Below are positions 20,244 to 62,910 of a stretch of 64,000 bases of DNA, piece by piece; position 1 is the stretch's first letter, and every line of letters begins with the position of its first letter. The notes beneath the pieces were generated by a model. That model did not search any database. It worked only from the letters and a program-made list of their open reading frames with translations, and had not been told where the DNA came from. The DNA lies in contig NZ_JAIQDD010000010.1 in the NCBI RefSeq assembly GCF_020036995.1, forward strand, positions 225,433 to 289,432, given 5' to 3'. The position numbers and the translations under genes were made by a program. Source of the stretch: Corallococcus sp. AS-1-12. Its GTDB lineage: Bacteria; Myxococcota; Myxococcia; Myxococcales; Myxococcaceae.

Positions 20244-20245
20244 GG

Positions 20246-34403: not shown

Positions 34404-34646
34404 GGACGGCCTCCTCGCTTGCTTGTGAAGGACGGTAGAGCAGGGGTCCGACATCACGGGTCGTGCGGGGACGTCTGGCGCTCCGGGAGGAGGGAAGCGA
34501 TGGCTGGCCGACGCTCGCGCCACGCACCTTCCACGGGTGGACGGGAGGGAGGACGCACGCCGGTCCGTGAGCCCTTGCGGCGTTGGCCGGGGATTCGCAT
34601 GGAACAGGGGCTCACGTAGTTCCAGTTTTTCGGGGAGGACGCAGTC

Positions 34647-35177
34647 ATGCGCAGACACCGCCGCATCATCGGAGTGTTCGGCTCCGGGGCGAACTCCCAC
34701 GAGGAGTGGGTCGTCCCCCTGGCGCGGTGGATCGCGGAGGCCGGGTTCGACCTGCTCACCGGCGCGGGCGGCGGCGTCATGAGCGCGGCGGCGGGCGCCT
34801 TCGTCCAGGTGGAGGGGCGGCGGGGGGCGGCCATCGGCATCATCCCCGGCACGGTGGGCCCGGACGGCCGCTACCAGCCCCGGCCCGGCTACCCGAACAC
34901 GGACATCGAGATCCCCATCTACACGCACCTGCCGCTCAGCGGGGAGCAGGGCACGGACCCCATGAGCCGCAACCACATCAACGTGCTGACGCCGCACGCG
35001 CTGGTGGCGCTGCCCGGGGGCGCCGGCACCGCGGCGGAGGCCTCCCTGGCCCTGCGCTATGGCAAGCCGCTCATCCTGCACGGCCCAACGGAGGTGTTCC
35101 GGCGCTTCCCGGCGGAGGCCGAGCGCACCACCTCCCTGGAGCGGGTGGCCGAGTTCCTCCTGGCCGCCACCCGGTAG
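34647..35177 (+). CDS. TIGR00725/LOG-SLOG-family Rossmann-fold protein (DprA-like fold, predicted nucleotide-binding)
   Basis: GVFGSG...GGGxGxM pattern (IGVFGSGANSHEE; LLTGAGGGVMSAAAGA). A good RBS GGGGAGGA lies 8 nt upstream of the ATG. Confidence 0.75.
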   Translation: MRRHRRIIGVFGSGANSHEEWVVPLARWIAEAGFDLLTGAGGGVMSAAAGAFVQVEGRRGAAIGIIPGTVGPDGRYQPRPGYPNTDIEIPIYTHLPLSGEQGTDPMSRNHINVLTPHALVALPGGAGTAAEASLALRYGKPLILHGPTEVFRRFPAEAERTTSLERVAEFLLAATR

Positions 35178-35310
35178 GCGGCAGGCGGGCTGAAGCAGGG
35201 CCTGGCCGGGGGGAAGCCACCCCACGGGGTGGCAAAAGATTCTAGGATGGACGGCACGGGGAAGGGCGTGCACCGCGCGCGCACGCCCGGCACCCGTCAC
35301 GTCCGCCATC

Positions 35311-35715
35311 ATGCTCATCAACCCCGACTATCCGCTGGCCAGTTGGTTCCTCGCGGTCTCCACCTCGGTCTTCCTGGTCGTCTACGCGCTGCCGCTGCTG
35401 TTCATCCCGCTGCGCTGGGCGCGCTGGTTCGGGTGGGAGCTGCCCACGGGCAACAACGACTTGACGGTCTACTTCGCGCGCTGCCTGGGCGGCCTGGCGC
35501 TGTCCGTCATCATCGCGGTGGTGCAGTTCATCCCGGACCCCAGGAGCCACCTGGTCATCTTCGAGCTCATCGGCCTCATTGGCGGCCTGATGACGGCGGT
35601 GCACATCTGGGGCGCGCTGAAGAAGCAGCAGCCCTGGCTGGAGACGGCGGAGATCCCCCTCTACGGCGCCATGTGCCTGGGCGCCCTGTACCTGCGCTAC
35701 GCGCACCTGTCCTGA
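35311..35715 (+). CDS. Small integral membrane protein (4 predicted TM helices), hypothetical
   Basis: Hydrophobic 134-aa ORF, codirectional with and 18 nt upstream of the large cyclase gene. Confidence 0.55.
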   Translation: MLINPDYPLASWFLAVSTSVFLVVYALPLLFIPLRWARWFGWELPTGNNDLTVYFARCLGGLALSVIIAVVQFIPDPRSHLVIFELIGLIGGLMTAVHIWGALKKQQPWLETAEIPLYGAMCLGALYLRYAHLS

Positions 35716-35733: not shown

Positions 35734-38700
35734 ATGCCCTCCACGCAGCCCATCGATCCCGCTGTCGCGATGCTGGCGCCGTACATGCCGGCGGCCATCC
35801 TCGCGCGGCTCGGGAGCCAGGAGGCGGACGCGCTGCCCCGGGCGGAAGGGGTGCGCGGCGCCATCCTGCTGCTGGACATCGCGGGCTTCACGCCCATCGT
35901 GGTGGGGCTGAGCGGCGCGGGCCCGCGCGGCATCGACGCGCTCCAGCGCCTGCTGACGAACTACTACACGGAGATGATCGACGTGGTCCGCGACCACGGC
36001 GGGGACATCTACCAGTTCGCCGGTGACTCCATCCTCGCGTGCTTCGAGGCCGCGCCCGGGGAGGCGGACGCGGACGTCGTGCAGCGCGCGGCGGTGTGCG
36101 CGCTGGGCGTGCAGCGCCGGCTCGCGCGCTTCGCCCGGCTGGAGCTGCTGGGCCAGCGCTTCGGCGTGTCGTCGCGCATCGGCATCGGGTTCGGGGAGGC
36201 CACCCGCATCGTGATGGGCGCCACCGGCCTGTGGATGCACCCGGCGCTCGTGGGAGAGCCGCTGGCGCAGGCGGTGGGCGCGGAGAAGCAGGCCACGGTG
36301 TCGGAGGTCGTCCTGAGCCCGCGCGCGTGGGCGGCCCTGCCGGAGTCCGCGCGCAAGGGCGAGCCGCGCGAGGGCGGCAACCACCGGCTGGCGCTGGACG
36401 CGCCGGTGGAGTCGGTGAAGCGCCCGCTGCCCGCGCCCACGGGCGGCGCGGAGCTGGTGGGCCGGTGCGCGCTGCTGCTGCACCCGGTGCTCTTCACGAA
36501 GATCACCACCGCGCACCAGGAGTTCGCGGGCGACTTCCGCGACGTCACCTGCTTCTTCGTGCGCTTCACCCACGCGCAACCGGACGCGGATCCGGACACC
36601 TTCACCCGCGACCTCAACGCCTACTACGAATATGTCCAGCGCGAGTCCGCCCACCACGGCGGCGTGCTGCTGATGACGGACTTCACGGACAAGGGCAACG
36701 TGCTCTACGTCCTGTTCGGCGCGCCCACCGCCCAGCAGAACAAGGAGGTGCTGGCGTGCCGGCTGGCCTGCAAGCTGCTCAAGGCCCGCGAGCAGTTCCC
36801 CTTCCTGGACGAGCTGCAGATCGGCATCGCCACCGGCCACGCCTACTGCGGGGACATGGGCTCGCCCACGCGCAAGGGCTACTCGGCGCTGGGCGAGGTC
36901 GTGAACATGGCCGCGCGCCTGATGACGCACGGCGGACGCCAGGACGGCGTGCACCTGTGCGCCAACACCCAGGCGCGCTCACAGCAGGGCGGCTTCGCCA
37001 CCGAGTTCGTGGAGGACGCGAAGCTCAAGGGCGTCTCGCGCTCGGTGCCGGTGTACCGGCTGCTGGGAGAGACGCGCCGCGGCCTCTTCATCAAGGGCCG
37101 GGGCGACATCATCGGCCGCAGCCGTGAGCTCAACGTGCTGCACGCGTCGCTCAACGCGGCCTTCGCCGGCCAGGGCCGCGTGTGCGTGGTGTCCGGAGAG
37201 GCGGGCATCGGCAAGTCGCGGCTGGGCGCGCGCGTGCTGGAGGACGCGGAGGAGGGCGGCGCCCGGGCGCTGTACGGCGTCTGCTACTCCTACGAGGCCT
37301 TCACCCCCTTCTTCCCCTGGAAGGAGGTCCTGCTCCAGGCGTTCGGCCTGCACGACTCGGACGACACCGACGCGCAGCTCGCGCGCCTGCGGCAGGGGCT
37401 GGAGGGACTGGAGGACGTGGGGCCGGAGTGGATCCCCGTGGTCGCGGGCATCCTCGGCATGTCGCTGGAGGAGACGTCCGCCACCGCGGGGATGGACGCG
37501 CGGCGCAAGCAGCAGAAGGTGTTTCAAATCGTCTTCCAGCTCCTGGAGAAGCTCAGCCGCGCGCAGCCGCTGCTGCTCTTCTTCGAGGACCTGCACTGGG
37601 CGGACTACATCTCGTTGGACCTGCTCCAGTACCTGGCGGTGCGCGTGGGCTCGCACCGCATCATGGTGCTGGCGACCATGCGCCCGGGCGACCAGCTCCG
37701 CGGGCTGCGCGACCTGCCGGAGTTCATCCCGCTGGACCTGGTGAGCCTGGACGACGAGGACACGCGGGCGCTGTTGCGCGTGCACCTGCGCCTGTCGCCG
37801 CCGGACGTGGCGCTGGAGGACCGGCTGCTCGCGAAGGTGCAGGGCAACCCGTTCTTCATCGAGTCCATCGTGGAGGGCCTGGCGGAGCAGGGCTACCTGG
37901 GGCCGGTGGAGCCCGGCTCGCCGCGCATGGAGTTGAAGCGTGGCCTGCAGGACCTGCTCCTGCCGGACTCCATCCAGGACGTGGTGCTGTCGCGCATCGA
38001 CCTGCTCAGCGAGACGGAGAAGCTGGTGGTGAAGGTGGCGTCCGTCATCGGGCGCATCTTCACGCTGGACGCGGTGGCGGCGCTGGTGCCCACGCTGGGC
38101 CACGCCATGCTGCGCGAGGCCATGGACACGCTCCAGCGCCTGGGCCTCATCCTGCTGGAGACGGAGGAGCCGTACACCTGCCTCTTCAAGCACATCGTCA
38201 TCCGCGACGTGGCCTACAACACGCTGCTGGTGTCCGCGCGCGAGGACCTGCACCGCCGGCTCGCGCGCTACCTGGAGGCCCGCGCCAACGACAACCTCGC
38301 GGGCTCCGCGGGTCTGCTCGCGTTCCACTTCCTCGCGGGCAACGTGGAGGACAAGGGCCTGGAGTACACGCTGATGGCGGCCCGCAGCGCGCGGGCGCAG
38401 TACGCGAACGACGACGCGCTCTACCACTACAACCGGGGCCTGGAGCTGCTGGGCACCGTCGTGCCGGTGGACCCGGAGGCGACGCTGCTCCAGACGCGCC
38501 GGGTGATGCAGGAGCTGGCGGAGACGCTGCTCCAGGCGGGCGACTACGCCAACGCCATCCTGATGTTCGAGCAGTGCCTGGTGGACGAGGAGGAGCCTCC
38601 CCGCCAGGCGGAGCTGCACCTGGGCCTGGGCCGCGCGCACCAGGAGAAGGGCGAGTCCGCGCTCGCCACGCAGCACCTGGAGAAGTCGCTGGTGCTGCGG

Positions 38701-40038
38701 GGCCGCAGCCTCCCGGGGAACCTGGCCACGCTGGGCCTGCGCACGCTGGCGAACCTCCTGCTGCGGGGGCTCGCGTCGCTTTTGCCCTTCATCCTGCGCC
38801 CGCTGCCGGCGGCGCGGCTGGGCAACTACCTGCAGCAGTTGTCCACGCTCAACTCGCTCATCCGCATCTACTACTTCGCGGACATCACCAAGCTCACCTG
38901 GGCGACGCTGGTGTCCACCAACATGGCGGAGCGCTCGCGCAGCGACTACGCCAGGAGCCTGGCGCGCGGCTACTACGGCACGCTCCTGTTCGGCGCGGGG
39001 CTGCTCGGCCGCGCGCGCTACCACTGCGAGAAGGCGCTGGAGTACGCCCGGCGCTCCAAGGACCCCGTGGCGGAGGGGCTCGCGCTCAGCCGCCTGGGCA
39101 TCCAGGCCTTCTTCGCCAACGAGCTGGAGCGCGCGAGAGAGTTCCAGGAGGAGGCCGTCTCCACGCTGCGCCAGGTGGGCGAGCGCTGGGAGCGCCAGAC
39201 GTCGCTGATGATGCAGGCCACGGGCGAGTTCCTCCACTCGCGCTTCCGCGCCGCGGTGGTGCTCTACGAGCAGATGGGGGCCATCGGCGTGGAGCTCAAC
39301 GCGCTGATGCACCAGGGCTGGGCGCACTCGTGGGCGCCCATGTGCCGCTACCTCATGGGCGAAGGCGACGTGGGCGAATTGTGCGCGGAGCTGGAGCAGG
39401 GCCTGCGCATCAGTGTGGAGGTGGCGGACCTGGCCAACCAGTGCGCCAGCCTGAACCACCTGGCCAACGTCACGGTGCGCGAGCACCAGGTGGAGGAGGC
39501 GGCGCTCGTCGCGGTGCGCTGCTTCAAGAGCATCTGGAGCTACCAGGTGATGGTGCCCTTCCTCCAGGTGGGGCTGGTGGACGCGGCGGAGGCGGCCCTC
39601 TTCGCGCTGGAGGAGGGCGCCACGGTGGTGCCGCGCAAGAAGCTGCTGAAGATCGTCAAGCTGGCGTGCATCAAGGCGCGCGTCATCGCCCGGCTCTATC
39701 CGTACCTGAAGGGCCCGGCGCTGCGCGTGACGGCGCGCTCGCTGGCCCTGCGCAAGGGGCCGAAGGCCGCGGAGCCGGTGTTCCTGGAGGCCATCGCCGT
39801 CCTGGAGAAGAGCCCCAACCGCTGGGAGACGGGCGTGGCCTACTTCGACGCGGCGGTGGCCCTGCCGCACCGGCGCGAGGACTTCCTCGCCCGGGCGCGC
39901 GCCATCTTCACGGAGGTGGAGGCCCGCGCGGAGCTGCGCCGCGTGGACCGCTTCCAGGCCACGCTCCAGGCCCCGCCGGCCCCGGCGCTCGTCGCCGCGC
40001 CCCGGGCCTCGCAGGTCCGTGACGCTCGCGTGATGTGA
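35734..40038 (+). CDS. Large multidomain signalling protein (1434 aa): tandem class III adenylate/guanylate cyclase homology domains, an AAA/STAND NTPase (P-loop GEAGIGKSRL) and a TPR/alpha-helical C-terminal region
   Basis: The first CHD carries LLLDIAGFT...GD..L...EA (catalytic-like). The second CHD carries FFVRFTHA in place of F-x-D-I-x-G-F-T and so appears degenerate. Walker A GEAGIGKSR and Walker B-like LLLFFEDLHWAD are present. Confidence 0.85.
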   Translation: MPSTQPIDPAVAMLAPYMPAAILARLGSQEADALPRAEGVRGAILLLDIAGFTPIVVGLSGAGPRGIDALQRLLTNYYTEMIDVVRDHGGDIYQFAGDSILACFEAAPGEADADVVQRAAVCALGVQRRLARFARLELLGQRFGVSSRIGIGFGEATRIVMGATGLWMHPALVGEPLAQAVGAEKQATVSEVVLSPRAWAALPESARKGEPREGGNHRLALDAPVESVKRPLPAPTGGAELVGRCALLLHPVLFTKITTAHQEFAGDFRDVTCFFVRFTHAQPDADPDTFTRDLNAYYEYVQRESAHHGGVLLMTDFTDKGNVLYVLFGAPTAQQNKEVLACRLACKLLKAREQFPFLDELQIGIATGHAYCGDMGSPTRKGYSALGEVVNMAARLMTHGGRQDGVHLCANTQARSQQGGFATEFVEDAKLKGVSRSVPVYRLLGETRRGLFIKGRGDIIGRSRELNVLHASLNAAFAGQGRVCVVSGEAGIGKSRLGARVLEDAEEGGARALYGVCYSYEAFTPFFPWKEVLLQAFGLHDSDDTDAQLARLRQGLEGLEDVGPEWIPVVAGILGMSLEETSATAGMDARRKQQKVFQIVFQLLEKLSRAQPLLLFFEDLHWADYISLDLLQYLAVRVGSHRIMVLATMRPGDQLRGLRDLPEFIPLDLVSLDDEDTRALLRVHLRLSPPDVALEDRLLAKVQGNPFFIESIVEGLAEQGYLGPVEPGSPRMELKRGLQDLLLPDSIQDVVLSRIDLLSETEKLVVKVASVIGRIFTLDAVAALVPTLGHAMLREAMDTLQRLGLILLETEEPYTCLFKHIVIRDVAYNTLLVSAREDLHRRLARYLEARANDNLAGSAGLLAFHFLAGNVEDKGLEYTLMAARSARAQYANDDALYHYNRGLELLGTVVPVDPEATLLQTRRVMQELAETLLQAGDYANAILMFEQCLVDEEEPPRQAELHLGLGRAHQEKGESALATQHLEKSLVLRGRSLPGNLATLGLRTLANLLLRGLASLLPFILRPLPAARLGNYLQQLSTLNSLIRIYYFADITKLTWATLVSTNMAERSRSDYARSLARGYYGTLLFGAGLLGRARYHCEKALEYARRSKDPVAEGLALSRLGIQAFFANELERAREFQEEAVSTLRQVGERWERQTSLMMQATGEFLHSRFRAAVVLYEQMGAIGVELNALMHQGWAHSWAPMCRYLMGEGDVGELCAELEQGLRISVEVADLANQCASLNHLANVTVREHQVEEAALVAVRCFKSIWSYQVMVPFLQVGLVDAAEAALFALEEGATVVPRKKLLKIVKLACIKARVIARLYPYLKGPALRVTARSLALRKGPKAAEPVFLEAIAVLEKSPNRWETGVAYFDAAVALPHRREDFLARARAIFTEVEARAELRRVDRFQATLQAPPAPALVAAPRASQVRDARVM

Positions 40039-40118: not shown

Positions 40119-40949
40119 ATGACCACCGCGCCGCTCCGCTTCCAGCTCAGTCCCGTCATCGTCGTCTACATGCTCGTGGTCCACGGCCTGGCCGCGCTGG
40201 CGTTCATCCTGCCCTGGCCGCCGTACGCGCTGCCGGTGGCGCTGGCCGTGTACGTGTCCATTGGCTTGGGCACGACGGTGGGGCTGCACCGGCTCTTGTG
40301 CCACCGCGCCTTCGCGTGCCCCCGCTGGGTGGAGTACGCGCTGGTGACGGTGGCCATGCTCACGGCGCAGGGCAGCCCGCTCCTGTGGGCCGCCAACCAC
40401 CGGCTGCACCACGCGAAGGCGGACGCGGACGGGGACGTGCACTCGCCGGTGCGCGGCTTCTGGTACGCGCACATGGGGTGGATCCTCAACGAGGCCTCCA
40501 CGGAGGAGGACGGCTGGCGCACCTGGTGCCGCGACATGGCGGACGACGGCTACTACCACTGGCTCTTGCGCTACCGCATCGCGCCGCAGGTGCTGGCGGT
40601 GCTCTTCGTGGGGCTGACCTTCGGCTGGCGCACGGTGCCCGCGTACTTCTTCCTGCCCGTGGTGTGCTGGATGCAGAGCACCTACGCGGTGAACTCCGTG
40701 TGCCACGCCGCGTTCGGACACCGCGACCACGACACGCGCGACCACAGCCGCAACGTGTGGTGGGTGAGCGTGCTCGCGCTGGGCGAGGGCTGGCACAACA
40801 ACCACCACGCCTTCCCCGCGTCCGCGCGGCACGGCTGGGTGTGGTGGCAGTGGGACCCGGGCTGGCTCTTCATCCGGGCGCTCCAGGCCCTGGGGCTGGC
40901 GTGGGACGTGCGCCTGCCGTCCCGGCTCAGGTCAGGACCTGCGGCGTGA
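40119..40949 (+). CDS. Membrane fatty-acyl desaturase, acyl-CoA (delta-9/stearoyl-CoA)-type
   Basis: Three histidine boxes typical of the family: HRLLCHR, HRLHHAKAD..DVHSP, and HNNHHAFP. Confidence 0.85.
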   Translation: MTTAPLRFQLSPVIVVYMLVVHGLAALAFILPWPPYALPVALAVYVSIGLGTTVGLHRLLCHRAFACPRWVEYALVTVAMLTAQGSPLLWAANHRLHHAKADADGDVHSPVRGFWYAHMGWILNEASTEEDGWRTWCRDMADDGYYHWLLRYRIAPQVLAVLFVGLTFGWRTVPAYFFLPVVCWMQSTYAVNSVCHAAFGHRDHDTRDHSRNVWWVSVLALGEGWHNNHHAFPASARHGWVWWQWDPGWLFIRALQALGLAWDVRLPSRLRSGPAA

Positions 40950-42342
40950 GGCCCAGCGCGGGCATCCGCTCCGCGTCCCACGCTTCAATGGCGTCCAGCC
41001 CCGCGATGTAGCGGCGCTCCGGGTTCTTCACCGGGTTGCGGATGCTGACGATTTCGGGCCCGGAGAAGAGGATGGTCTGCTTGTAGCGGGGCAGGTCGCT
41101 CATCATCAGCTTGGACGCGTAGTGCCGCGCGATGTTGGGCAGGCTGCCCAGCGTGCGGCACAGCCGCTGGAAGTGCTCCACCACCTCCGACGCGTGCATC
41201 TGCTTGGGCCGGTGGCACAGCGTGTAGCCGTCGTAGTCGCGGCTGGTGGTGCCGGGCAGGAGCCGGTCCTCGGCCTTCAGTTCGCGGAAGAAGGGCGTCT
41301 CCGGATACGGGCACACGATGCCCAGGAACGTGACGGAGAAGTACTTCAGGTCCGCCAGGTAGTCCGGCAGCCGGTGCAGGTACTCGTTGGTGTCGCCGTC
41401 CGAGCCAACGATGAGCCCGAAGGACAGCAGGATGCCGGCGGAGAAGACGCGGCGGATGACGGTGTCCACCTCCGACAGCTTGTTCTGGCCCTTGTTCATC
41501 GCCTTGAGCGAGTCCGGGTTGAGTGACTCCAGGCCGGTGTAGACGTAGCGGCAGCCCGCCTTCGCCATCAGCTTCACCAGCGACTCGTCCTTGAGCACGT
41601 TGAAGGTGAGCGCGCAGCCCCACGTCTTCTTCAGGGGGATGAGCGCTTCGCACAGCGCGCGCAGGTACTTGGGCGAGCCGCCCAGGTTGTTGTCCAGGAA
41701 GACGAACGCGTCCCCCATCAGCCCCAGGAAGTTCGGGTTCCAGCGCATGCGCGTCTGGATTTCGTCGATGACCTCCGGGATGGGCCGGAAGCGGTAGCGC
41801 TCGTGGCCGGTGAGCACGCAGAAGTTGCACGTGAAGGGGCAGCCGCGCGACGCCTCGATGCCCGGCAGGCGCACCTTGTTGTGCGTGAAGTCGATGAGCT
41901 CGTAGCGGTACGGCCGGATGGCCGCGGCGCCCTGCGACGGCAGGCTGTAGCGGGGCTTGAGCTCACCCTTCTCGAAGTCCGCGATGAGCGCCGGCACGTT
42001 GGACTCCGGCTCCCCGGTGATGACCGCGTCGAAGTACTTCGCCGCGTCGTCCGGGAAGTGGCTCGCGTGCCGGCCTCCCGCCACCGTCGTCATTCCGCGC
42101 TGACGGAAGAGGGTGGAGAGCACCTTGGTGTGCTCGTAGTACGAGTGCAGGTACGAGAAGAAGACCAGGTCCCAGTGCCGGTCCAGCGGCAGGTCCGCCT
42201 CCTTCTCGTTGAAGATCTCCACCTCGGCGTGCTCCGGGCACAGGCCCGCGATGAGCTCCGGCACGGAGGACTGCATGATGGAGGGTTCCTTGATTCGCAG
42301 CCGGGTCGGATGGGTGTACGTGGCGATGATGGCGATGCGCAT
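40927..42342 (-). CDS. B12-binding (cobalamin-dependent, class B) radical SAM protein
   Basis: Radical SAM cluster motif CPFTCNFC (CxxxCxxC). An N-terminal Rossmann-like B12-binding region precedes it. Its 3' end overlaps the desaturase 3' end by 23 nt (convergent). Confidence 0.85.
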   Translation of the reverse strand: MRIAIIATYTHPTRLRIKEPSIMQSSVPELIAGLCPEHAEVEIFNEKEADLPLDRHWDLVFFSYLHSYYEHTKVLSTLFRQRGMTTVAGGRHASHFPDDAAKYFDAVITGEPESNVPALIADFEKGELKPRYSLPSQGAAAIRPYRYELIDFTHNKVRLPGIEASRGCPFTCNFCVLTGHERYRFRPIPEVIDEIQTRMRWNPNFLGLMGDAFVFLDNNLGGSPKYLRALCEALIPLKKTWGCALTFNVLKDESLVKLMAKAGCRYVYTGLESLNPDSLKAMNKGQNKLSEVDTVIRRVFSAGILLSFGLIVGSDGDTNEYLHRLPDYLADLKYFSVTFLGIVCPYPETPFFRELKAEDRLLPGTTSRDYDGYTLCHRPKQMHASEVVEHFQRLCRTLGSLPNIARHYASKLMMSDLPRYKQTILFSGPEIVSIRNPVKNPERRYIAGLDAIEAWDAERMPALGLTPQVLT

Positions 42343-42565
42343 GCGAGCGGGCCCGGCGGCGCACGCGGCGGAAACGGGGGCGCGCGCGTTCGTGTTTTCA
42401 CCTGCCGGACCGCGTCCCCCTTCGTCGGTGGAGGATCACCCGGAGTCCGGGCGGTGGCAAAGGATCTCCCTCACGAACACCACACGCTCCGCGTGTTTCC
42501 GGTGGCAGCGGACGACCCAGGAGGACCTATCTCGCGTGGGGGGCGTACTGATAGATCTTTGAAAC

Positions 42566-44353
42566 ATGGATACTTCTCCTTCGCCAGCCGCCCCGGGTTG
42601 GCCGTTTAAGCGTTACTTCTGGATTTCCATCGTGCTCGCGGTGGCGCTGGGCGCGACGGCGTTGCGCTCGGGGTTCATGCCGGATGACTTCATCTGGCTG
42701 GGCGTCTGGGACAACATTCCGCCGCCCGCGCCGCTGGGCAACACGCACCTGGACGTGTACCGCACGGCCACCGGCATCCCGGAGCACACGCTGCGTCTGG
42801 CGGAGGTGGGCGTCTTCCCGTGGTGGGTGGAGCCCACCGTGCGCGTCGCGTTCTTCCGGCCCCTGGGCAGCCTGCTCTACGGGCTGGATCACGTGCTCTA
42901 CAACCGCGTCGCCGTGGCCTACCAGCTCCACTCGCTGCTCTGGTACGTGGGCCTGGTGGCGGTGGCGGGCCTGCTGCTCAAGCGCGTGCTGCCCACGGCG
43001 GTGGCGGGCGTGGCGATGGTCCTCTTCGCCCTCTGGGGCTCCCACGCGGCGGTGCTGGGCTGGCTGTCCTACCGCAGCGTGGTGATGTCGCTGCTCTTCG
43101 GCATCCTCGGCATCTCCCTGCACGTGAAGTGGCGGGAGGAGAAGCGCACGGGCGCGCTGGTGGGCGCGCTGGTGTCCTTCGCGCTCGCGCTCCTCTGCGG
43201 TGAGACGATGGTCATCCTCAGCCCGTACGTGCTGGCCTACGAGGCCTTCTCCGGCCCGGGGCAGGCGAAGGACAAGCTCAAGGGGCTCATCCCGTTCGGC
43301 GTGCTGATGGCCCTCTACTTCGCGGCGTACCGGGCCATGGGCTACGGCGCGGGCGGCTCGGACATGTACCTGGACGCGCTGGGGACGCCGGTGGCGTGGT
43401 TCCAGGCGATGCTCGGGCGCGTGCCGGCCGCCATCGCGGGGCTGACGCTGAACGCACCGCCGGACTTCATCTTCGATCAATCCCTGGTGCCCCTCTTCAC
43501 CGTCCTGGGCGCGGTGGGCTTCACGCTGTTCGCGCTGCTCGTGTGGGGCGTGTGGCCCCGGCTGGAGGCCGCGGAGAAGCGCACGGTGGGCTGGATGCTG
43601 ACGGGCGCGTTCGTGTCCACGTGGCTGTCCAACTCCGCCTTCGCCGGCTCGCGCACGCTCATCGTGCCCAGCCTGGGCATGGCGGTGGGTTTGGCCGTGG
43701 TGCTGCGCCACGCGTGGAAGGGGCGGGCGCTCAAGCTCCGCGCGGGCGCGGTGGTGGCCGGCGCGGCGGTGATGGCCCTCATCCACGTCGTGGGCTCGCC
43801 GTACCTCTGGTGGCAGACCATGGAGCAGTACTCGCAGGCGGACGCGCTCATGGGGCGCGTGCAGGCGCGCTACGAGGAGGCGTTCGATCAGACGAAGCTC
43901 CCCAACCAGCGCGTGGTGGTGCTCAACGCCCCCAACGGCATCATCGGCATCTACGGCTCCGTGCGCTGGTGGTCCTCGGGCAACCCCCTGCCCAAGGCCT
44001 GGTGGGTGCTGTCCTATTCGCTCCACGAGCAGAAGGTGACGCGCACCGGCCCCAACTCGCTGGAGCTGGCGCTCACCCGGGGCGGCCACTTCCTGGACTC
44101 CGTGGAGGAGCGCATCCACCGCGCCGCGCGCCACCCGGTGCGCCAGGGCGACGAGTTCGACATGAAGGGCATGAAGGTGCGGATCGAGGAGGCGGACGCG
44201 CAGGGCCCCACGCGCATCTCCTACACCTTCGACGTGCCGCTGGAGGACCCGTCGCTGAAGCTGGTCCAGTGGCAGAACAAGAAGGTGGTGCCCTGGGTGC
44301 CGCCGGCCGTGGGCGGGCCGCCGTCCGCCCTCAACGTCCGGGCCGTGCAGTAG
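42566..44353 (+). CDS. Large polytopic membrane protein (~12 TM helices plus a C-terminal soluble domain). Possibly a lipid/glycan transferase-like membrane enzyme (GT-C/ArnT-like topology); function unknown.
   Basis: Hydrophobicity pattern, ATG at 42566, and divergent from the radical SAM gene across a 223-nt intergenic region. Confidence 0.65.
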   Translation: MDTSPSPAAPGWPFKRYFWISIVLAVALGATALRSGFMPDDFIWLGVWDNIPPPAPLGNTHLDVYRTATGIPEHTLRLAEVGVFPWWVEPTVRVAFFRPLGSLLYGLDHVLYNRVAVAYQLHSLLWYVGLVAVAGLLLKRVLPTAVAGVAMVLFALWGSHAAVLGWLSYRSVVMSLLFGILGISLHVKWREEKRTGALVGALVSFALALLCGETMVILSPYVLAYEAFSGPGQAKDKLKGLIPFGVLMALYFAAYRAMGYGAGGSDMYLDALGTPVAWFQAMLGRVPAAIAGLTLNAPPDFIFDQSLVPLFTVLGAVGFTLFALLVWGVWPRLEAAEKRTVGWMLTGAFVSTWLSNSAFAGSRTLIVPSLGMAVGLAVVLRHAWKGRALKLRAGAVVAGAAVMALIHVVGSPYLWWQTMEQYSQADALMGRVQARYEEAFDQTKLPNQRVVVLNAPNGIIGIYGSVRWWSSGNPLPKAWWVLSYSLHEQKVTRTGPNSLELALTRGGHFLDSVEERIHRAARHPVRQGDEFDMKGMKVRIEEADAQGPTRISYTFDVPLEDPSLKLVQWQNKKVVPWVPPAVGGPPSALNVRAVQ

Positions 44354-44399: not shown

Positions 44400-45425
44400 T
44401 CAGCCCACCATCCGCACCACCGCCAGCGTGAGCCCGTAGACGATGACGGACACCAGCGCGGCGGCGGGGATGGTGAACACCCACGCCCAGATGATGCGGC
44501 CGGCGGTGCCCCACTTCACGGCCCGCCAGCCGCGCGTGGACCCCACGCCGACGATGGCGCCGGTGATGGTGTGCGTGGTGGAGACGGGGATGCCCAGCTC
44601 CGCCAGCGCGATGATGGTGACGCCGCCGCCCGTCTCCGCGCTGAAGCCGCCAATGGGCGCCAGCTTCGTGAGGCTGTGGCCCATGGTGCGGATGATGCGC
44701 CAGCCGCCGAAGAAGGTGCCCAGCGCGATGGCGGCGTGGCAGGAGATGATCATCCACCAGTCGATGTGGAACGGCCGGTCGCGCCAGATGGTGCCGAAGA
44801 GCACCACCGCGATGATGCCCATGACCTTCTGCGCGTCGTTGGTGCCGTGGCTGAAGGAGAAGATGGCGGACGACACCAACTGCAGCCGGCGGAACCAGGT
44901 GTCCACGCGCAGCGGCGTCTGACGGTGCACCGCCCAGGTGCTGGCCAGCATCATCCCGATGCCCAGCGTCATGCCGATGAGCGGCGACAGCACGATGAAG
45001 GCCGCGATGCGCGCGATGCCGCTGCCCACCAGGCCCTCGAAGCCCAGCACGGGGAGCGTGGCGCCAATCATCCCGCCCGCCAGCGCGTGGGACGACGACG
45101 AGGGCAGCCCCCACCACCAGGTGAGCAGGTTCCAGACGATGGCGCCCATCAGCGACGAGAAGATGACCATCAGCACCGCGGTGGGGCCGGCGGCGCGGAG
45201 CATCTCGAAGTTGATGATGCCCTTGCCCATGGTGTTGGCCACGTGCACGCCGCCCGCGAAGGCCGCCACGAAGTTGAAGAACGCGGCCCACGCCACGGCC
45301 AGGTTCGGCGACAGCACGCGCGTGGACACCACGGTGGCGATGGAGTTCGCCGCGTCGTGGAAGCCGTTGATGAAATCGAAGATGAGCGCGACGACGACGA
45401 TGGTGACGACCGCTGCGAGCAGCAT
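44400..45425 (-). CDS. pit: Inorganic phosphate transporter, PiT family
   Basis: Duplicated PiT signature GxNDAxN (INGFHDAANSIAT and FSHGTNDAQKVMG). Confidence 0.85.
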   Translation of the reverse strand: MLLAAVVTIVVVALIFDFINGFHDAANSIATVVSTRVLSPNLAVAWAAFFNFVAAFAGGVHVANTMGKGIINFEMLRAAGPTAVLMVIFSSLMGAIVWNLLTWWWGLPSSSSHALAGGMIGATLPVLGFEGLVGSGIARIAAFIVLSPLIGMTLGIGMMLASTWAVHRQTPLRVDTWFRRLQLVSSAIFSFSHGTNDAQKVMGIIAVVLFGTIWRDRPFHIDWWMIISCHAAIALGTFFGGWRIIRTMGHSLTKLAPIGGFSAETGGGVTIIALAELGIPVSTTHTITGAIVGVGSTRGWRAVKWGTAGRIIWAWVFTIPAAALVSVIVYGLTLAVVRMVG

Positions 45426-45426
45426 C

Positions 45427-46053
45427 TCAGCTATGCTCCAGCACGACGCCTTCGATGACGTTGGCCACGCCCTGGCACTTGTCCGTGGCCGTCTCGATGA
45501 GGTCGTAGATCTCCTTCCACTTGATGATGGTCAGGGTGTCCACGCCGCTCTTGAACAGCCGGCCCATGCCCGCGCGCAGGACCTCGTCCGCCTGGGTCTC
45601 CAGGTGCTTGATCTCCTTGCACCCCGCGAGGATCTGCTCCGGCTTCTTGATGAGCCGCAGCGCCGCGACGACCTCCTGCACCTTGCGCGTGGAGAGCACC
45701 AGCAGCCGCGCCAGCTCCGTGGCGTCCTCGCGGCTGGACTCAATCTCGTAGTAGAGCAGCCGCGCCGCCGCCGCGTTGGTCAGGTCCAGCACGTCGTCGA
45801 TGCGCGACAGGAGCGTGTGGATCTGACCCCGGTCGAACGGGGTGATGAACTGCTGGTGGAGCCGGTTGAAGGCCGTGTGGGTGACCTCGTCGCCCCGGTG
45901 CTCCACGTCCTTGAGGGCCTGGACTCGCGCGGGCACGTCCCGGAAGTCGCTCAAGAGGTCGTGCAGGAGCTTCGCTCCCTCGACAGTTCTGGCGCATTGC
46001 GCGTCGAAGTCGTCGAAGAACTCGTCCGACTTCGGCATCAGCTTTTCGAGCAT
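45427..46053 (-). CDS. DUF47 (PhoU-like) phosphate-transport regulator family protein, PiT-associated
   Basis: Typical DUF47 length and helical bundle sequence. One nt upstream of pit, the standard two-gene arrangement. Confidence 0.8.
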   Translation of the reverse strand: MLEKLMPKSDEFFDDFDAQCARTVEGAKLLHDLLSDFRDVPARVQALKDVEHRGDEVTHTAFNRLHQQFITPFDRGQIHTLLSRIDDVLDLTNAAAARLLYYEIESSREDATELARLLVLSTRKVQEVVAALRLIKKPEQILAGCKEIKHLETQADEVLRAGMGRLFKSGVDTLTIIKWKEIYDLIETATDKCQGVANVIEGVVLEHS

Positions 46054-46231: not shown

Positions 46232-46894
46232 TCAGACGACGCGGTTGCGCAGCTCCTCGAAGAATCCCACCCACAACTGCCACATCTCCTCGGCGCCGCG
46301 CGTGATGGTGGCCAGCTCCGCGTCCGTGTACTGGAGGCCCACCGTGTGGCCGGCCGTCTCCACGTGGTCCGGCTCCTGCTTCACGTGGATGTCCACCCAG
46401 GGCAGGGCCTTGAGGCCCGTGGTGCGGCGCACCAGCTTGCCCAGCTTGGCCACCATGGTGAGGTCCGCCACCTCCGTGCCATAGAGGAAGCCCAGGCCCG
46501 TGAGGTGGCTGTCCGTGGAGCGCTGGTAACCGTCGATGAGCCGGCGCGTCGCGGGCGTCATGTCCGCCTCGGACACGCCCGCCTTCGTGAAGCCCGCGTC
46601 CGTCATCGTCTGGATGAAGAAGCGCTCGTGCGCCCTCGCCGGGTCTCCCTCGCCCACCTCCTGGTTGAGGATGTGCGTCACGGCCGTCTTCATCTCCATC
46701 TGCGGACAGACGGCGATGAGCTTGCCCAGGAAGGTGGGGAAGTAGTGCAGGGGGTGCCACCACTGACCCAGCACCATCTCCGCCTGTTCGCGGCTGAAGG
46801 CCTTCTCATCCACCACCTCGAAGAACCGGTGCTTGATCAACTGCTCTCGGTGGGAGTTCTTCGCCAGTGCCGCCTCGATGGTCTGGTTCCGCAT
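46232..46894 (-). CDS. Heme-oxygenase-like fold protein (TenA/PqqC/CADD 'iron-containing redox enzyme' superfamily), possibly a diiron enzyme
   Basis: 220-aa helical protein with E..H and H-x6-D-H spacing (NQEVGEGDPARAHERF; DIHVKQEPDHVE) reminiscent of HDO/CADD metal ligands. Motif-level inference only. Confidence 0.5.
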   Translation of the reverse strand: MRNQTIEAALAKNSHREQLIKHRFFEVVDEKAFSREQAEMVLGQWWHPLHYFPTFLGKLIAVCPQMEMKTAVTHILNQEVGEGDPARAHERFFIQTMTDAGFTKAGVSEADMTPATRRLIDGYQRSTDSHLTGLGFLYGTEVADLTMVAKLGKLVRRTTGLKALPWVDIHVKQEPDHVETAGHTVGLQYTDAELATITRGAEEMWQLWVGFFEELRNRVV

Positions 46895-47113
46895 TGCCGC
46901 CTCCAGGTGGGTCCAAAAGGGCTGGGTCGGCGTTTATCACAAAGCAGGACTGAGATTCTTGGAAATGTAGAAAGACAAGTTCAATACGACTACGTGGTTT
47001 GCCGCCAGTGTGGAACGTGCAGGCAGGCGAGGGTGGGCTGTTCGGCGTGGGGGCTGACAGCCTACAGTTGGAAAATCGGCATTTTCTCCCTGGCCCCCTT
47101 GTACGGAAGACGC
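46895..47113. promoter_or_regulatory. AT-enriched divergent intergenic region between the heme-oxygenase-like gene (-) and the desaturase (+)
   Basis: ttatcacaaagcaggactgagattcttggaaatgtagaaagacaagttcaatacgactacg is unusually AT-rich for this sequence. Confidence 0.35.
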
Positions 47114-47998
47114 ATGACCCTGTTCCGGCACCCTGAAGATCGCATCCCGGTCCTGATGTTCCTTGGCGTCTTCGCGCTCGACATGACGGTGTTCCTCACG
47201 GCGCGAAGCTGGTGGGTACCGGTGCTGTGGTTCGGGCTGGGCATCATCCCCAAGGGGTGGATCTGCTCGTGGAACCACCACCACCAGCACCTGTCCTTCT
47301 TCAAGCACGCGCTGCCCAACCGGCTCCTGGAGATTGTCTTCGGCTTCCAGACGGGCGTGACGTCGCAGGCGTGGTTCCTCCATCACGTGCTGGGCCACCA
47401 CAAGAACTACCTGGACCAGTCGCAGGACGAGTCGCGCTGGAAGCGGGAGGACGGCTCGACGATGGGCGAGGTGGAGTACTCGCTGGGCACGGCGCTGACC
47501 GCCTACCCGCGCGCGTTCCAGGTGGGCCGGAAGCACCACCCCAAGGCGCTGCGCACGTTCGTGGTGATGGCCGCGCTCCAGGTGGTGCTGCTGGCGGGCC
47601 TGTTCTGGGTGAACCCCTACAACGCGCTCTTCGTGTTCCTGCTGCCCATGATGGCGTCGCTCTACGTGACGACCTGGGCCACGTACTTCCACCACGTGGG
47701 CCTGGACACGGCGAACCACTCGGAGGCCTCGTACAACATCCTCCACAAGGGCTACAACCTGATGACGGGCAACCTGGGCTACCACACCGCGCATCACACG
47801 CGGCACGGCCTGCACTGGTCCAAGCTGCCGGAGCTGCACGCGCAGTTGGCGCGCGACATCCCCGCGAACCTGTACCGCCAGCCGGGCATCCCGTTCGTCT
47901 GGCGCGGCTCCGAGGAGAAGCTGGTGCTGAGCGAGCACGAGGTCGCCGCGCTCACCGGCGGGCCCGTGGAGGGCCGCGGGGAGAAGCTGGCCGCCTAG
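47114..47998 (+). CDS. Membrane fatty acid desaturase (FA_desaturase family, DesA/sphingolipid-desaturase-like)
   Basis: Histidine boxes HHHQH, HHVLGHH and HTAHHTRH. ATG at 47114, in frame within ORF 46175..47998. Confidence 0.8.
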   Translation: MTLFRHPEDRIPVLMFLGVFALDMTVFLTARSWWVPVLWFGLGIIPKGWICSWNHHHQHLSFFKHALPNRLLEIVFGFQTGVTSQAWFLHHVLGHHKNYLDQSQDESRWKREDGSTMGEVEYSLGTALTAYPRAFQVGRKHHPKALRTFVVMAALQVVLLAGLFWVNPYNALFVFLLPMMASLYVTTWATYFHHVGLDTANHSEASYNILHKGYNLMTGNLGYHTAHHTRHGLHWSKLPELHAQLARDIPANLYRQPGIPFVWRGSEEKLVLSEHEVAALTGGPVEGRGEKLAA

Positions 47999-62128: not shown

Positions 62129-62306
62129 GCACCGCTCATACTCCACGGGCCTCGGGCCCTGGTTGTTCCGGCGTGCGGCGAACGGCGCGTGCGCGCGATG
62201 CTCAACGTTCCGCGCCCGGCTCAACCTGGCGGCGGCTTGCCGTGCGCCCTGGAGAACAATCGCCTTCGGACGGGCGTCCCGGCGCCAGACGTATTATGTT
62301 CATCAT

Positions 62307-62816
62307 ATGGATGTGCAGCCATCCGGAAGGGACGCGGGCATGGCATCGACGGACGAGGGCGGGCGCCAGGAGCTGTTCCTGGACGACCTGTCGGTGGGGC
62401 AGAAGTTCACCAGCGGTACGCACACGCTGGACGCGGCGCAGATCATCGCCTTCGCGCGGGAGTTCGATCCGCAGGGCTTCCACCTGGACGACGCCGCGGC
62501 GAAGGACACGCTGTTCGAGGGGCTCGCGGCGAGCGGCTGGCACACGGCGGCCCTCACCATGAAGCTCAACGTCCAGAGCGGCCTGCCCTTCAAGGGCGGC
62601 ATCGTGGGGGCGGGCGGGGAGCTGCGCTGGCCCAGGCCCACGCGCCCGGGGGACGTCCTTCACGTGGAGAGCGAGGTGCTGGAGATCATCTCCTCGCGCA
62701 CGCGGCAGGACCGGGGCATCGCCACCGTGCGCAGCGAGACGCGCAACCAGAGGGGCGACGTGGTGCAGGTGCTCATCGCGAAGCTGGTGCTGCCCCGCCG
62801 CCCGGTGGGCGGGTGA
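62307..62816 (+). CDS. MaoC-like (R)-specific enoyl-CoA hydratase / hot-dog fold dehydratase
   Basis: Hot-dog signature ...DPQGFHLDDAAA...GGIVGAGG..., about 160 aa. Alternative ATG at 62340. Confidence 0.8.
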   Translation: MDVQPSGRDAGMASTDEGGRQELFLDDLSVGQKFTSGTHTLDAAQIIAFAREFDPQGFHLDDAAAKDTLFEGLAASGWHTAALTMKLNVQSGLPFKGGIVGAGGELRWPRPTRPGDVLHVESEVLEIISSRTRQDRGIATVRSETRNQRGDVVQVLIAKLVLPRRPVGG

Positions 62817-62910
62817 GCGGGACGGGACGCTTTGCGTCAGGGCGTGTGGAGGCTACGGTGCGCCCCGCATCGGCCGTGGTCCCCGTCCTGCTCCCGAGGA
62901 GTTCTTCCGC

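Follow-up and report, generated by a model that had tools for sequence, protein, structure and literature searches.

A stretch of DNA from Corallococcus sp. AS-1-12, 64,000 nucleotides long and hereafter called the window, contains a desaturase gene and a radical SAM (rSAM) gene that converge and overlap at their 3′ ends. The gene for a large membrane protein diverges from the rSAM gene. Do these neighbours act together and, if so, on what? A sequence-only reading of the locus had judged it plausible that all three belong to a lipid-tailoring island with two further desaturases. The features considered here are as follows.

34620-35715, plus strand: SLOG cluster-4 gene (PF18306) and a gene for a 173-aa protein without a family; both precede the cyclase gene
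35734-40038, plus strand: adenylate/guanylate cyclase, AAA_16 (STAND) and TPR protein, 1434 aa, from Pfam matches
40119-40949, plus strand: SCD-type (stearoyl-CoA-desaturase-like) membrane di-iron fatty-acyl desaturase, 276 aa; accessory member of the pair
40927-40949: 23-nt overlap of the convergent desaturase and rSAM 3′ ends, with stop codons read from the sequence
40927-42342, minus strand: orphan rSAM enzyme with an N-terminal Rossmann (B12-binding-like) domain, 471 aa; core member of the pair
42343-42565: divergent intergenic region, 223 nt, ending at the membrane-protein ATG (42566)
42566-44353, plus strand: predicted GT-C fold glycosyltransferase (ArnT/PglB/STT3/PMT-like), 595 aa; a neighbour outside the module
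47003-47998, plus strand: second desaturase (PF00487, E = 3e-29)
62563-63999, plus strand: third desaturase (PF00487, E = 2.4e-24), running past the window end

The desaturase and radical SAM proteins

Both genes had been recognised correctly, as a desaturase gene and a radical SAM gene. The histidine boxes HRLLCHR, HRLHH and HNNHH are present in the desaturase ORF, which matches PF00487 (E = 1.3e-17), and CPFTCNFC is present in the rSAM ORF, which matches PF04055 (E = 3e-15). The GC3 values of the two genes are 0.97 and 0.95 respectively. The whole core of the desaturase aligns with mouse SCD1 (4ymk; E = 8.8e-28, residues 12-268) and the SCD1 metal-ligand positions HxxxxH, HxxHH, NSxxH and HNxHH line up with it. 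It resembles SCD1 and the bacterial acyl-CoA and acyl-lipid delta-9 desaturases. Unlike these, the protein is short, and its orthogroup, where orthologs were looked up, was found solely beside rSAM. The DesA family model was not reached (96 bits against a cut-off of 400).

In an alignment of the rSAM family and its distant relatives, C168, C172, C175, G270 and E272 are unvarying; the CxxxCxxC and GxE SAM motifs are both retained. An AlphaFold model of the protein (pLDDT 92) has a class-B-like fold, with Rossmann and TIM-barrel parts. Its architecture is that of class B, but the nearest relative of solved structure, AprD4, dehydrates 1,2-diols and is no methylase, so that B12 dependence, as given in the earlier reading, is no more than putative. 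The B12-binding family PF02310 scored 19 bits on the protein, below its gathering score of 32 bits. The best PDB matches of the model are AprD4, MgmA, TsrM, OxsB, TokK and CysS.

The rSAM protein reached no NCBIfam cut-off, and none of the curated families. Scores were 37 bits for HpnR (cut-off 650), 65 bits for HpnJ (578), 66 bits for BchE (481) and 67 bits for the ladderane-type TIGR04072 (360). The family itself is tight, with at least 60% identity inside the clade and 72-75% between phyla. Placed among its relatives, the protein clusters with neither cofactor nor antibiotic enzymes; such clustering would have told against the earlier reading. Class B (cobalamin-dependent) rSAM enzymes that modify lipids are the hopanoid methylases HpnP/HpnR, GrsA/GrsB and Gmm; Myxococcota and Pyrinomonadaceae, which carry the present enzyme, go unmentioned in the review describing them (PMC13459092). 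The likeness to these enzymes consists of the Rossmann domain, the rSAM barrel with CxxxCxxC, and the lipid-chain enzymes in the genomic context. Conversely, the protein studied here belongs to a clade of its own, set apart by a gap down to 33-41% identity in the next relatives, and fits no curated model.

Conservation of the desaturase-rSAM pair

We surveyed 8 kb around each of the 80 best rSAM loci, counting as desaturase orthologs those with at least 57% identity. An ortholog lay within 8 kb at 26 of the 80 loci, and a diverged desaturase at 2 more. In the reverse look-up, all five desaturase orthologs adjoined an rSAM ortholog (68-87% identity); a control desaturase paralog of 50% identity had no adjoining rSAM gene. 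The desaturase precedes rSAM in Archangium gephyra and in a Polyangia MAG, and the two genes are convergent in Pyxidicoccus xibeiensis. The order is Rce1-like, rSAM, desaturase, hydrolase in Sorangium, and rSAM, desaturase, hydrolase, with 4-nt overlaps, in Minicystis rosea. Desaturase orthologs of 57-94% identity adjoin rSAM orthologs in both Myxococcota and Pyrinomonadaceae, and the pair is kept together in at least five gene orders across Myxococcia, Polyangia and Pyrinomonadaceae. Pairwise distances for the two proteins are correlated (r = 0.92; 0 of 2000 Mantel permutations were as high), and for 7 pairs of rSAM and desaturase matches the longest contig is of identical size. The two genes form a genuine conserved module, of which the convergent pair in the window is the Corallococcus form.

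The rSAM gene is the core of this module and is found in all carriers, namely Myxococcota, Pyrinomonadaceae (which we take to be Acidobacteria subdivision 4) and a few other acidobacterial MAGs. The desaturase is accessory; it occurs in only some rSAM carriers and adjoins rSAM in every case examined. Myxococcus, most Pyxidicoccus, Stigmatella and many MAGs have rSAM with no desaturase ortholog nearby, and no Myxococcus protein is among the desaturase matches of at least 50% identity. Thus, rSAM has no need of this desaturase, because such genomes keep the former without the latter.

Could unrelated genes simply have come to lie tail to tail in a genome as gene-dense and GC-rich as this? Within the window, all convergent pairs are close-packed (spacings of 4-70 nt, plus a single further overlap, of 7 nt). 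The 23-nt overlap and the 223-nt spacer had both been given correctly, but the overlap is not conserved; in other Corallococcus and Citreicoccus genomes, the two ends overlap by 23, 80 or 8 nt or are separated by 4-27 nt. A search for a terminator-like site at the overlap was negative. The overlap is unremarkable by itself, and its exact form is a local accident of the Corallococcus genome. Adjacency of the two genes is, however, far above chance. The two genes have stayed together through five or more rearrangements across two phyla, and every reverse look-up was positive. On these comparative data we reject chance adjacency, which we consider scarcely credible.

The membrane protein and the remainder of the window

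The 595-aa protein is, as had been stated, a large polytopic membrane protein. Pfam and PDB sequence searches with it gave no match. Its model (pLDDT 90) has about a dozen long helices and a C-terminal beta domain, and all but one of its 25 best Foldseek matches in the PDB (24) are GT-C enzymes. We found 36 homologs in all, some named RgtA/B/C/D-like. An acidic DD motif (D40-D41) in the first loop is unvarying. We read the protein as a GT-C glycosyltransferase, unrelated to the desaturase-rSAM pair, and its position as a local accident of the Corallococcus genome.

The trio proposed earlier, in which the membrane protein would serve the two enzymes as a transporter, flippase or scaffold, draws on the physical closeness of the genes in the window and on a divergent arrangement that is common within Corallococcus. 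Against it stand the GT-C fold and the distribution of the gene, which adjoins rSAM in 11 loci, all Corallococcus-type, and was found at no rSAM locus outside Corallococcus. The protein also evolves faster (64-92% identity within the genus, compared with 91-98% for rSAM). In Citreicoccus, the contig recorded for the best homolog differs in length from the one with rSAM, so the two genes are apparently on different contigs; this counts as indirect evidence because the rSAM locus (L013) spans just 8 kb on each side. The divergent junction exists in Corallococcus-type loci only. Its 223-nt spacer has no Rfam match, and so no cobalamin riboswitch, and no sigma-70-like promoter was found in it; there is a single weak hairpin at 42378-42391. 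The second and third desaturases are real, but neither they nor the other neighbours are conserved with rSAM beyond the genus, and the rest of the window is a mixture of unrelated functions. The trio is thus largely refuted, and we regard it as very improbable. Of the lipid-tailoring proposal as a whole, the desaturase-rSAM pair is retained, while the trio, the conserved overlap and the island are not.

Proposed function of the module

Accessory neighbours of the pair (a hydroxylase, a hydrolase, an alkyl-DHAP synthase homolog and PlsC) point to glycerolipids; other neighbours point to cNMP signalling. In Pyrinomonadaceae, the operon order is desaturase, FA_hydroxylase, rSAM. The FA_hydroxylase, which 23 of the 29 loci from Acidobacteria contain, is closest to the yeast ceramide fatty-acid 2-hydroxylase Scs7p (Scs7/FA2H-like). 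Two Archangium species have a same-strand row of aldo-keto reductase, alkyl-DHAP synthase homolog (matching 2uuu, E = 1.7e-74), a fusion of glycerol-3-phosphate dehydrogenase and alpha/beta hydrolase, desaturase and rSAM. The hydrolase that follows the pair in Minicystis shares 60-62% identity with the fused hydrolase domain of Archangium. At two loci (L071 and L076), a PlsC-type acyltransferase is divergent from rSAM. PMC13159169 reports an ether-lipid cluster, elb, from myxobacteria and from Acidobacteria of subdivision 4. The pair has a two-phylum distribution similar to that of the ether-lipid genes agps (Mxan_1676) and elbB-E and, in Archangium, is directly downstream of the AGPS homolog and the dehydrogenase fusion. 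However, rSAM and the desaturase are not among the genes named in that work (agps, elbB-E, plsA, Ger), and linkage to AGPS was observed in a single genus.

The earlier claim of a functional, lipid-related link between desaturase and rSAM is supported by recurrence of the pair across two phyla, in several gene orders, with acyl and glycerolipid genes alongside. Radical tailoring of lipid chains is the most likely function. With moderate confidence, we suggest that the rSAM enzyme and the SCD-type desaturase both modify hydrocarbon chains in the glycerolipids of the membrane, which may be ether (alkylglycerol-type) lipids. The rSAM enzyme would use a 5′-deoxyadenosyl radical to abstract hydrogen at an unactivated chain carbon, and would then finish a modification beyond the reach of ordinary enzymes. 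For this reaction we favour cobalamin-dependent C-methylation, but only slightly over a radical reaction without methyl transfer. The desaturase would introduce a cis double bond into lipids of this pool and would probably act either on the rSAM product or in parallel with it. Conservation of the pair thus suggests a step of membrane-lipid tailoring that has yet to be described. Gene identities, catalytic motifs, folds, linkage across phyla and the accessory genes are established here, whereas the lipid substrate, the sequence of the two steps and the chemistry are inferred. We know of no lipid that is common to exactly these taxa and still without an enzyme, which counts against the proposal. 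So do the genomes that have rSAM but no desaturase ortholog nearby, the prevalence of signalling genes around rSAM in Myxococcota, the two-component setting of a sister rSAM family, the dehydratase activity of AprD4 and the restriction of the ether-lipid context to one genus.

Desaturases are paired with methyl-adding enzymes for acyl-chain tailoring elsewhere. Tuberculostearic acid, a mid-chain methyl-branched lipid, is made via BfaA/BfaB by desaturation and then SAM-dependent methylation, and fungal sphingolipids involve a delta-8 desaturase and a C9 methyltransferase. The module would share this pairing, and the acidobacterial operon adds a sphingolipid-type 2-hydroxylase to the fungal likeness. 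Conversely, the methyltransferases of the BfaA/BfaB and fungal C9 type belong to the ordinary class I SAM enzymes and attack a double bond, whereas the partner here is a radical SAM enzyme that in many genomes occurs without the desaturase.

The same lipid module might instead contain an rSAM enzyme that works without cobalamin and does not transfer methyl groups. One candidate is a dehydratase like AprD4 (apramycin biosynthesis, 1,2-diol dehydratase), which would act on a vicinal diol such as a hydroxylated chain or the terminal glycerol of an alkylglycerol. Another is a counterpart of the adjoining oxygen-dependent desaturase and hydroxylase that, unlike these, needs no oxygen. AprD4 (6fd2) has the same two-domain architecture and is the solved relative closest in sequence (E = 1.8e-11) as well as in fold (TM 0.67-0.70), albeit at ~18% identity. 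The low PF02310 score and the lack of a cobalamin riboswitch in the spacer are in keeping with this, the acidobacterial hydroxylase immediately upstream of rSAM could make the substrate hydroxyl, and oxygen-dependent and oxygen-independent isoenzyme pairs are a known pattern (HemF/HemN, AcsF/BchE). However, the AprD4 family model gave 43.5 bits against a cut-off of 500, and the cobalamin-binding TsrM, OxsB, TokK and CysS fit the rSAM fold almost equally. AprD4 belongs to an aminoglycoside cluster with a reductase partner, whereas the partners of rSAM are membrane lipid enzymes. Furthermore, the carriers are aerobes and, to our knowledge, there is no rSAM fatty-acid desaturase. We consider this chemistry unlikely. 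Similarly doubtful is a role for rSAM in a cyclic-nucleotide/STAND signalling unit, where it would modify a protein or peptide, perhaps a substrate of the CPBP (Rce1-like) intramembrane protease, or make a small signal molecule; the desaturase would then be a regulated output or a passenger. Signalling genes are indeed the commonest rSAM neighbours in Myxococcota. A cyclase/AAA_16/TPR homolog is beside rSAM at 42 of the 80 loci, including all 34 of Myxococcaceae type, and is upstream on the same strand at L064 and L061. A cNMP-binding plus Rce1-like protein, or an Rce1-like protein alone, adjoins rSAM in five lineages (L057, L061, L064, L084 and L087). A sister rSAM family (39-41% identity) is encoded inside a two-component operon, directly downstream of a response regulator and at L081 also overlapping a hybrid histidine kinase gene at its 3′ end, which would suit a protein or signalling substrate. 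In addition, third place among the structural matches goes to MgmA, which methylates glutamine in a protein, and a macromolecular substrate would fit the very high conservation of rSAM. Nevertheless, STAND/TPR, kinase and two-component genes are very abundant in Myxococcota, so some chance adjacency is expected. No conserved small precursor ORF is present beside rSAM, rSAM in Acidobacteria shares its operon with genes for two membrane di-iron lipid enzymes and with no signalling gene, and a passenger desaturase can hardly account for the 5/5 reverse linkage.

In the window, the desaturase starts 80 nt downstream of the cyclase/AAA_16/TPR gene, the most constant rSAM neighbour in Myxococcaceae. 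The order LDcluster4, small ORF, cyclase recurs in Pyxidicoccus (L086) and Stigmatella (L091) and is syntenic in Myxococcaceae; the ORF cluster occurs in 33 loci.

Gene calls and junctions in the window

The window has a G+C content of ~70%, and true reading frames were picked out by third-position GC. Our conclusions about the loci compared are based on tblastn coordinates and the collection's own gene calls. The radical SAM (rSAM) locus is 100% identical to that of Corallococcus coralloides KYC2213. The genes discussed are listed here.

Genes of the window, with coordinates, strand and, where applicable, the basis of the assignment.
34620-35177, +, SLOG cluster-4 (LDcluster4) gene
35194-35715, +, family-less gene
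35734-40038, +, cyclase/AAA_16/TPR protein (third-position GC, Pfam)
40119-40949, +, desaturase (third-position GC, Pfam)
40927-42342, -, rSAM protein (third-position GC, Pfam)
42566-44353, +, membrane protein (third-position GC; no Pfam match)
44400-46053, -, PiT phosphate transporter and PhoU_div protein (third-position GC, Pfam)
46232-46894, -, Haem_oxygenas_2 protein (third-position GC, Pfam)
47003-47998, +, second desaturase (third-position GC, Pfam)
62106-62816, +, MaoC-like dehydratase ORF, just before the third desaturase ORF
62563-63999, +, third FA_desaturase-family ORF, much extended at the N-terminus and running past the window end

The start of rSAM is placed at ATG 42342 because the 31 homologs aligned with the window protein share the M-R/K-I/V-A/G N-terminus of its 471-aa form. 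The 486-aa form of the Corallococcus protein at NCBI probably begins 15 codons too early.

The sequence-only reading described a desaturase with three histidine boxes, an rSAM gene with the motif CPFTCNFC, a 23-nt overlap of their 3' ends and a divergent spacer of 223 nt between rSAM and the membrane protein gene. Both motif sets are found in the sequence, and the overlap (40927-40949) and spacer have these lengths. The overlap itself means little. It is 23 nt in C. coralloides, C. interemptor and Corallococcus sp. RDP092CA, 80 nt in C. carmarthensis, C. exercitus and C. aberystwythensis (loci L003, L004, L005, L006) and 8 nt in Citreicoccus. Other Corallococcus species have a gap of 4-27 nt. 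In the species with the 80-nt overlap the rSAM stop codon is shifted by 57 nt, giving a longer rSAM and a larger overlap. The desaturase C-terminal tail past ~residue 267 is not conserved. Moreover, all convergent pairs of the window are tightly packed, with spacings of -23 to +70 nt. No terminator-like hairpin was found between the desaturase and rSAM genes, and searches of the 223-nt spacer and the overlap for an RNA element, promoter or terminator gave nothing above chance. There is no cobalamin riboswitch upstream of rSAM, an absence that is neutral on cobalamin use.

Two further desaturases had been noted nearby, and both exist (47003-47998 and 62563-63999). The idea that the window is a lipid island was rejected on the unrelated functions of the neighbours; other window genes encode a Ser/Thr kinase, a TonB receptor, an M28 peptidase, an SLT transglycosylase, UbiA, cytochromes and Omp85. 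The second desaturase gene (+) is arranged divergently from the Haem_oxygenas_2 gene (-), which encodes a CADD-like, iron-containing redox enzyme (TIGR04305, 44.6 bits vs a 200-bit cut-off). Both are kept in most Corallococcus loci and are missing at the rSAM loci of other genera. They are perhaps a di-iron enzyme pair in their own right. In the window, a 2-oxoacid dehydrogenase E1 alpha/beta gene pair (E1_dh; Transket_pyr + Transketolase_C) occupies 19188-21289 (-); in L091, a Stigmatella locus, it is at 19039-21102. The distance to rSAM is ~20 kb in Corallococcus and ~8 kb in Stigmatella; hence, there is wider synteny around the locus.

Linkage of the desaturase and rSAM genes

To see whether the neighbours vary freely among orthologs, which the sequence-only reading had counted against its lipid proposal, we looked for the genes flanking rSAM in the window at 80 rSAM loci taken from species-representative genomes. 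Desaturases with at least 57% identity were taken as orthologs, and adjacency was counted within 8 kb of rSAM. A desaturase ortholog was present in 26 of the 80 loci (14 Myxococcaceae-type, 11 from Pyrinomonadaceae or other Acidobacteriota and one Lake Baikal Myxococcales MAG). The Myxococcaceae-type loci are mostly convergent; Hyalangium versicolor has the desaturase on the rSAM strand, immediately upstream. A diverged desaturase adjoins rSAM in two more loci, namely Minicystis L078 (36% identity, directly downstream) and L063 (41%). No desaturase was found at the rSAM loci of Myxococcus, most Pyxidicoccus and Stigmatella L091. In Myxococcus, the rSAM and cyclase genes are tail to tail.

In the reverse search, all five desaturase orthologs that we looked up in other lineages adjoin an rSAM gene, and those five rSAMs are true orthologs (68-87% identity). 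As a control, we used a desaturase paralog with 50% identity; it has no adjoining rSAM. Thus, by our working definition, the two genes constitute a conserved module: whether one starts from rSAM or from the desaturase, they are found adjacent in distant lineages and despite rearrangement. The pair is kept in at least five arrangements.

Arrangements of the desaturase-rSAM pair.
Arrangement 1: cyclase, desaturase, then convergent rSAM
Arrangement 2: desaturase then rSAM
Arrangement 3: rSAM, desaturase, hydrolase, with 4-nt overlaps
Arrangement 4: desaturase, hydroxylase, rSAM
Arrangement 5: the two genes separated by 5.5 kb (locus L064)

In the cases looked up, desaturase orthologs occur only with rSAM, and rSAM is often alone. 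Hence, we infer a core role for rSAM, with the desaturase as an accessory that depends on it. The pairwise distances of the two proteins are correlated (r = 0.92; none of 2000 Mantel permutations reached this value), which is weak support since shared phylogeny alone would also give correlation. Minicystis rosea (CP016211.1) has two copies of the pair, at 7854-10345 of L078 and 5508-8823 of L088. One has the orthologous desaturase and a hydrolase, and the other the diverged (36%) desaturase. Of the linked lipid-tailoring genes proposed from the sequence, then, the desaturase-rSAM pair is real; we found no support for a trio or an island, or for a meaning of the overlap.

Families and folds of the three proteins

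The rSAM protein belongs to the radical SAM superfamily (PF04055, 57 bits vs a 29.5-bit cut-off). The cluster cysteines of CxxxCxxC (C168, C172 and C175) and residues G270 and E272 of the GxE SAM-binding motif are invariant. The AlphaFold model (pLDDT 92) agrees in fold with rSAM structures and has an N-terminal Rossmann domain; PF02310 (B12-binding) scores 19 bits vs a 32-bit cut-off. The best fold match is AprD4 (TM 0.67-0.70), followed by MgmA, TsrM, OxsB, TokK and CysS. On the basis of the Rossmann domain and these matches, the predicted architecture is class B; cobalamin use is putative. AprD4, the nearest solved relative, is a dehydratase and not a methylase.

The sequence-only reading had named placement relative to HpnP/HpnR, BchE and TsrM-type enzymes as a check, with clustering among enzymes of unrelated pathways counting against a lipid role. 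No such clustering appeared, as the protein reaches none of these families. Among the NCBIfam models covered (BchE, HpnP/HpnR, HpnJ, PhpK, TsrM types, ladderane-associated TIGR04072 and AprD4), no equivalog cut-off was reached, the best scores being 37-67 bits vs 251-775. The nearest out-clade relatives are likewise below every curated cut-off. Assignment to a curated family (HpnP/R, HpnJ, BchE, TsrM-type, PhpK, ladderane B12 rSAM, AprD4 or RiPP methylases) was rejected because the scores are far too low. An exhaustive HMMER search of 1.84 billion cluster representatives gave one full-length representative at 60% identity, then a gap to 41, 39 and 33%. Clade members from different myxococcal genera share 80-87% identity, and those of Pyrinomonadaceae and a Bryobacteraceae MAG are still 72-75% identical.

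The desaturase is an SCD-type acyl desaturase of the first-desaturase group (PF00487, 65 bits vs a 29.7-bit cut-off). It has the motifs HRLLCH, HRLHH, NSVCH and HNNHH, corresponding to the histidine boxes and the NSxxH ligand region. Residues 12-268 align with SCD1 (4ymk, E 8.8e-28). The DesA family threshold was not reached (NF049918, 96 bits vs 400).

The membrane protein has no sequence-family match. Its model (pLDDT 90) was compared with the PDB using Foldseek, and 24 of the best 25 matches are GT-C enzymes (AglB, STT3, PglB, ArnT, AftD, Pmt4, DPY19, ALG9), with E down to 9e-7. An acidic DD pair near the N-terminus (D40, D41) is invariant in 22 homologs. The GT-C membrane fold, together with a DxD/DD motif in the first extracytoplasmic loop, places the protein among GT-C glycosyltransferases. 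Homologs (n = 36) are found in Corallococcus, Citreicoccus, Archangium and a few MAGs. The gene adjoins rSAM only in Corallococcus-type loci (11 of 80), where the membrane protein is 64-92% identical vs 91-98% for rSAM. We conclude that it is a predicted fast-evolving envelope glycosyltransferase, and that its divergent position beside rSAM is a genus-level accident. The GT-C fold and genus-specific position led us to reject it as a transporter or lipid partner, and the trio falls with it.

Gene neighbours, proposed function and possible origin of the pair

The known route to functionalising lipid chains that are chemically inert is by radical SAM enzymes, as in hopanoid methylation and in the formation of archaeal tetraethers and their rings. 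Of the 29 acidobacterial loci, 23 have a gene for a 215-aa FA_hydroxylase-family protein immediately upstream of rSAM; the closest solved relative of this protein is yeast Scs7p, a ceramide fatty-acid 2-hydroxylase. This partner is absent from the window and from Myxococcota loci. In two Archangium species the pair is at the end of a same-strand row that comprises an aldo-keto reductase, an alkyl-dihydroxyacetonephosphate synthase (AGPS) homolog, a glycerol-3-phosphate dehydrogenase/alpha/beta hydrolase fusion, the desaturase and rSAM. The AGPS homolog matches 2uuu with E 1.7e-74 vs 1.6e-26 for D-lactate dehydrogenase. The window and the loci outside Archangium gave no AGPS or GlpD homolog. 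In Minicystis, the hydrolase encoded downstream of the pair shares 60-62% identity with the fused hydrolase domain of Archangium. A PlsC-type acyltransferase is divergent from rSAM in two Myxococcota MAGs, and a YceI-like protein gene is so placed in M. xanthus. These accessory neighbours point to acyl or alkyl glycerolipids. They also fit the elb ether-lipid cluster, which is reported to be common to myxobacteria and subdivision-4 Acidobacteria (PMC13159169). Gene context makes radical tailoring of the chains of membrane glycerolipids the likeliest role, a reading that we favour with moderate confidence.

Other neighbours are of signalling type. A cyclase/AAA_16/TPR (STAND) homolog adjoins rSAM in 42 of 80 loci. 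Genes for a cNMP-binding and Rce1-like (CPBP) membrane protein, or an Rce1-like protein alone, do so in five lineages. The main rival explanation is that the true substrate of rSAM is a protein or a signal molecule, which we consider unlikely. Alternatively, the signalling neighbours could provide cyclic-nucleotide regulation of a lipid pathway. For a peptide substrate of RiPP type, no conserved precursor-like ORF was seen beside rSAM and the neighbours are mixed: outside the named partners, 110 Pfam families occur among 110 proteins, each in six or fewer. That reading was rejected. An anti-phage system (Pycsar-like cyclase and cNMP effector) was also rejected, as PADLOC gave weak, generic cyclase/cNMP-domain similarity and nothing for rSAM or the desaturase.

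The cNMP-binding and Rce1-like neighbours, in which a cNMP-binding domain is fused to the domain of an Rce1-like intramembrane protease, occur in non-Myxococcaceae Myxococcota (L057, L061, L064, L084, L087), Sorangium having the Rce1-like domain alone. In L061 and L064 an AAA_16/TPR gene separates the cNMP/Rce1-like gene from rSAM. Beside rSAM there is also a triad, consisting of the SLOG cluster-4 gene, a family-less gene of ~130-170 aa and the cyclase/AAA_16/TPR gene. It is kept in Corallococcus, Pyxidicoccus (L086, 1554-6949) and Stigmatella (L091, 12412-17393), and may be a nucleotide-signalling unit of its own. Members of a sister rSAM family (39-41% identity; L081 7099-11443, L082 398-2566) come right after a Response_reg+GerE regulator gene, and the one in L081 further overlaps a hybrid histidine kinase gene at its 3' end. 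The sister family is thus embedded in a two-component operon.

A more specific proposal is that rSAM founds a new lipid-modifying radical SAM family. The enzyme would add a modification that as yet has no gene to the iso-branched acyl or alkyl chains of ether-type glycerolipids, with the desaturase, and in Acidobacteria the 2-hydroxylase-like enzyme, acting on the same chains. Candidate modifications would be a mid-chain methyl branch, a ring or a carbon-carbon link, and the carriers would be Myxococcota and subdivision-4 Acidobacteria. The acidobacterial rSAM could be one missing aerobic enzyme behind iso-diabolic-acid or brGDGT-type lipid structures. In this detailed form we hold the proposal to be distinctly improbable. 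Branched tetraether and iso-diabolic lipids serve as palaeoclimate proxies, and the acidobacterial version might bear on their biosynthesis. In Acidobacteria, Mss homologs are absent under the criteria of the published survey and Tes is rare (PMC13159169). A 2026 review of lipid-modifying rSAM enzymes lists Tes, Mss, Gms, GrsA/B, Gmm, Cds, HpnH/J/P/R, Jaw5 and ladderane candidates; it mentions neither Myxococcota nor Acidobacteria, and its characterised cases are all from other lineages (PMC13459092). Our full-text searches gave no paper on this rSAM protein. On these grounds, we regard the pair as a module not yet described, assembled from known enzyme superfamilies.

The rSAM family is now defined as uncharacterised, unusually conserved (72-75% between two phyla) and travelling with a dedicated SCD-type desaturase. 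Specific accessory genes are now named, and since Myxococcus and Corallococcus are genetically tractable, a lipid phenotype is directly testable. Should the product be a new chain modification, a step would be added to bacterial membrane-lipid biosynthesis.

We built a neighbour-joining tree of rSAM, rooted with the 33-41% relatives and without support values. The acidobacterial rSAMs (loci within L031-L063) group in a single clade that falls within the diversity of Myxococcota; Polyangia sequences branch more basally. This topology suggests that Acidobacteria received the module from Myxococcota in one transfer. The elb ether-lipid cluster is reported to have a similar distribution (PMC13159169).
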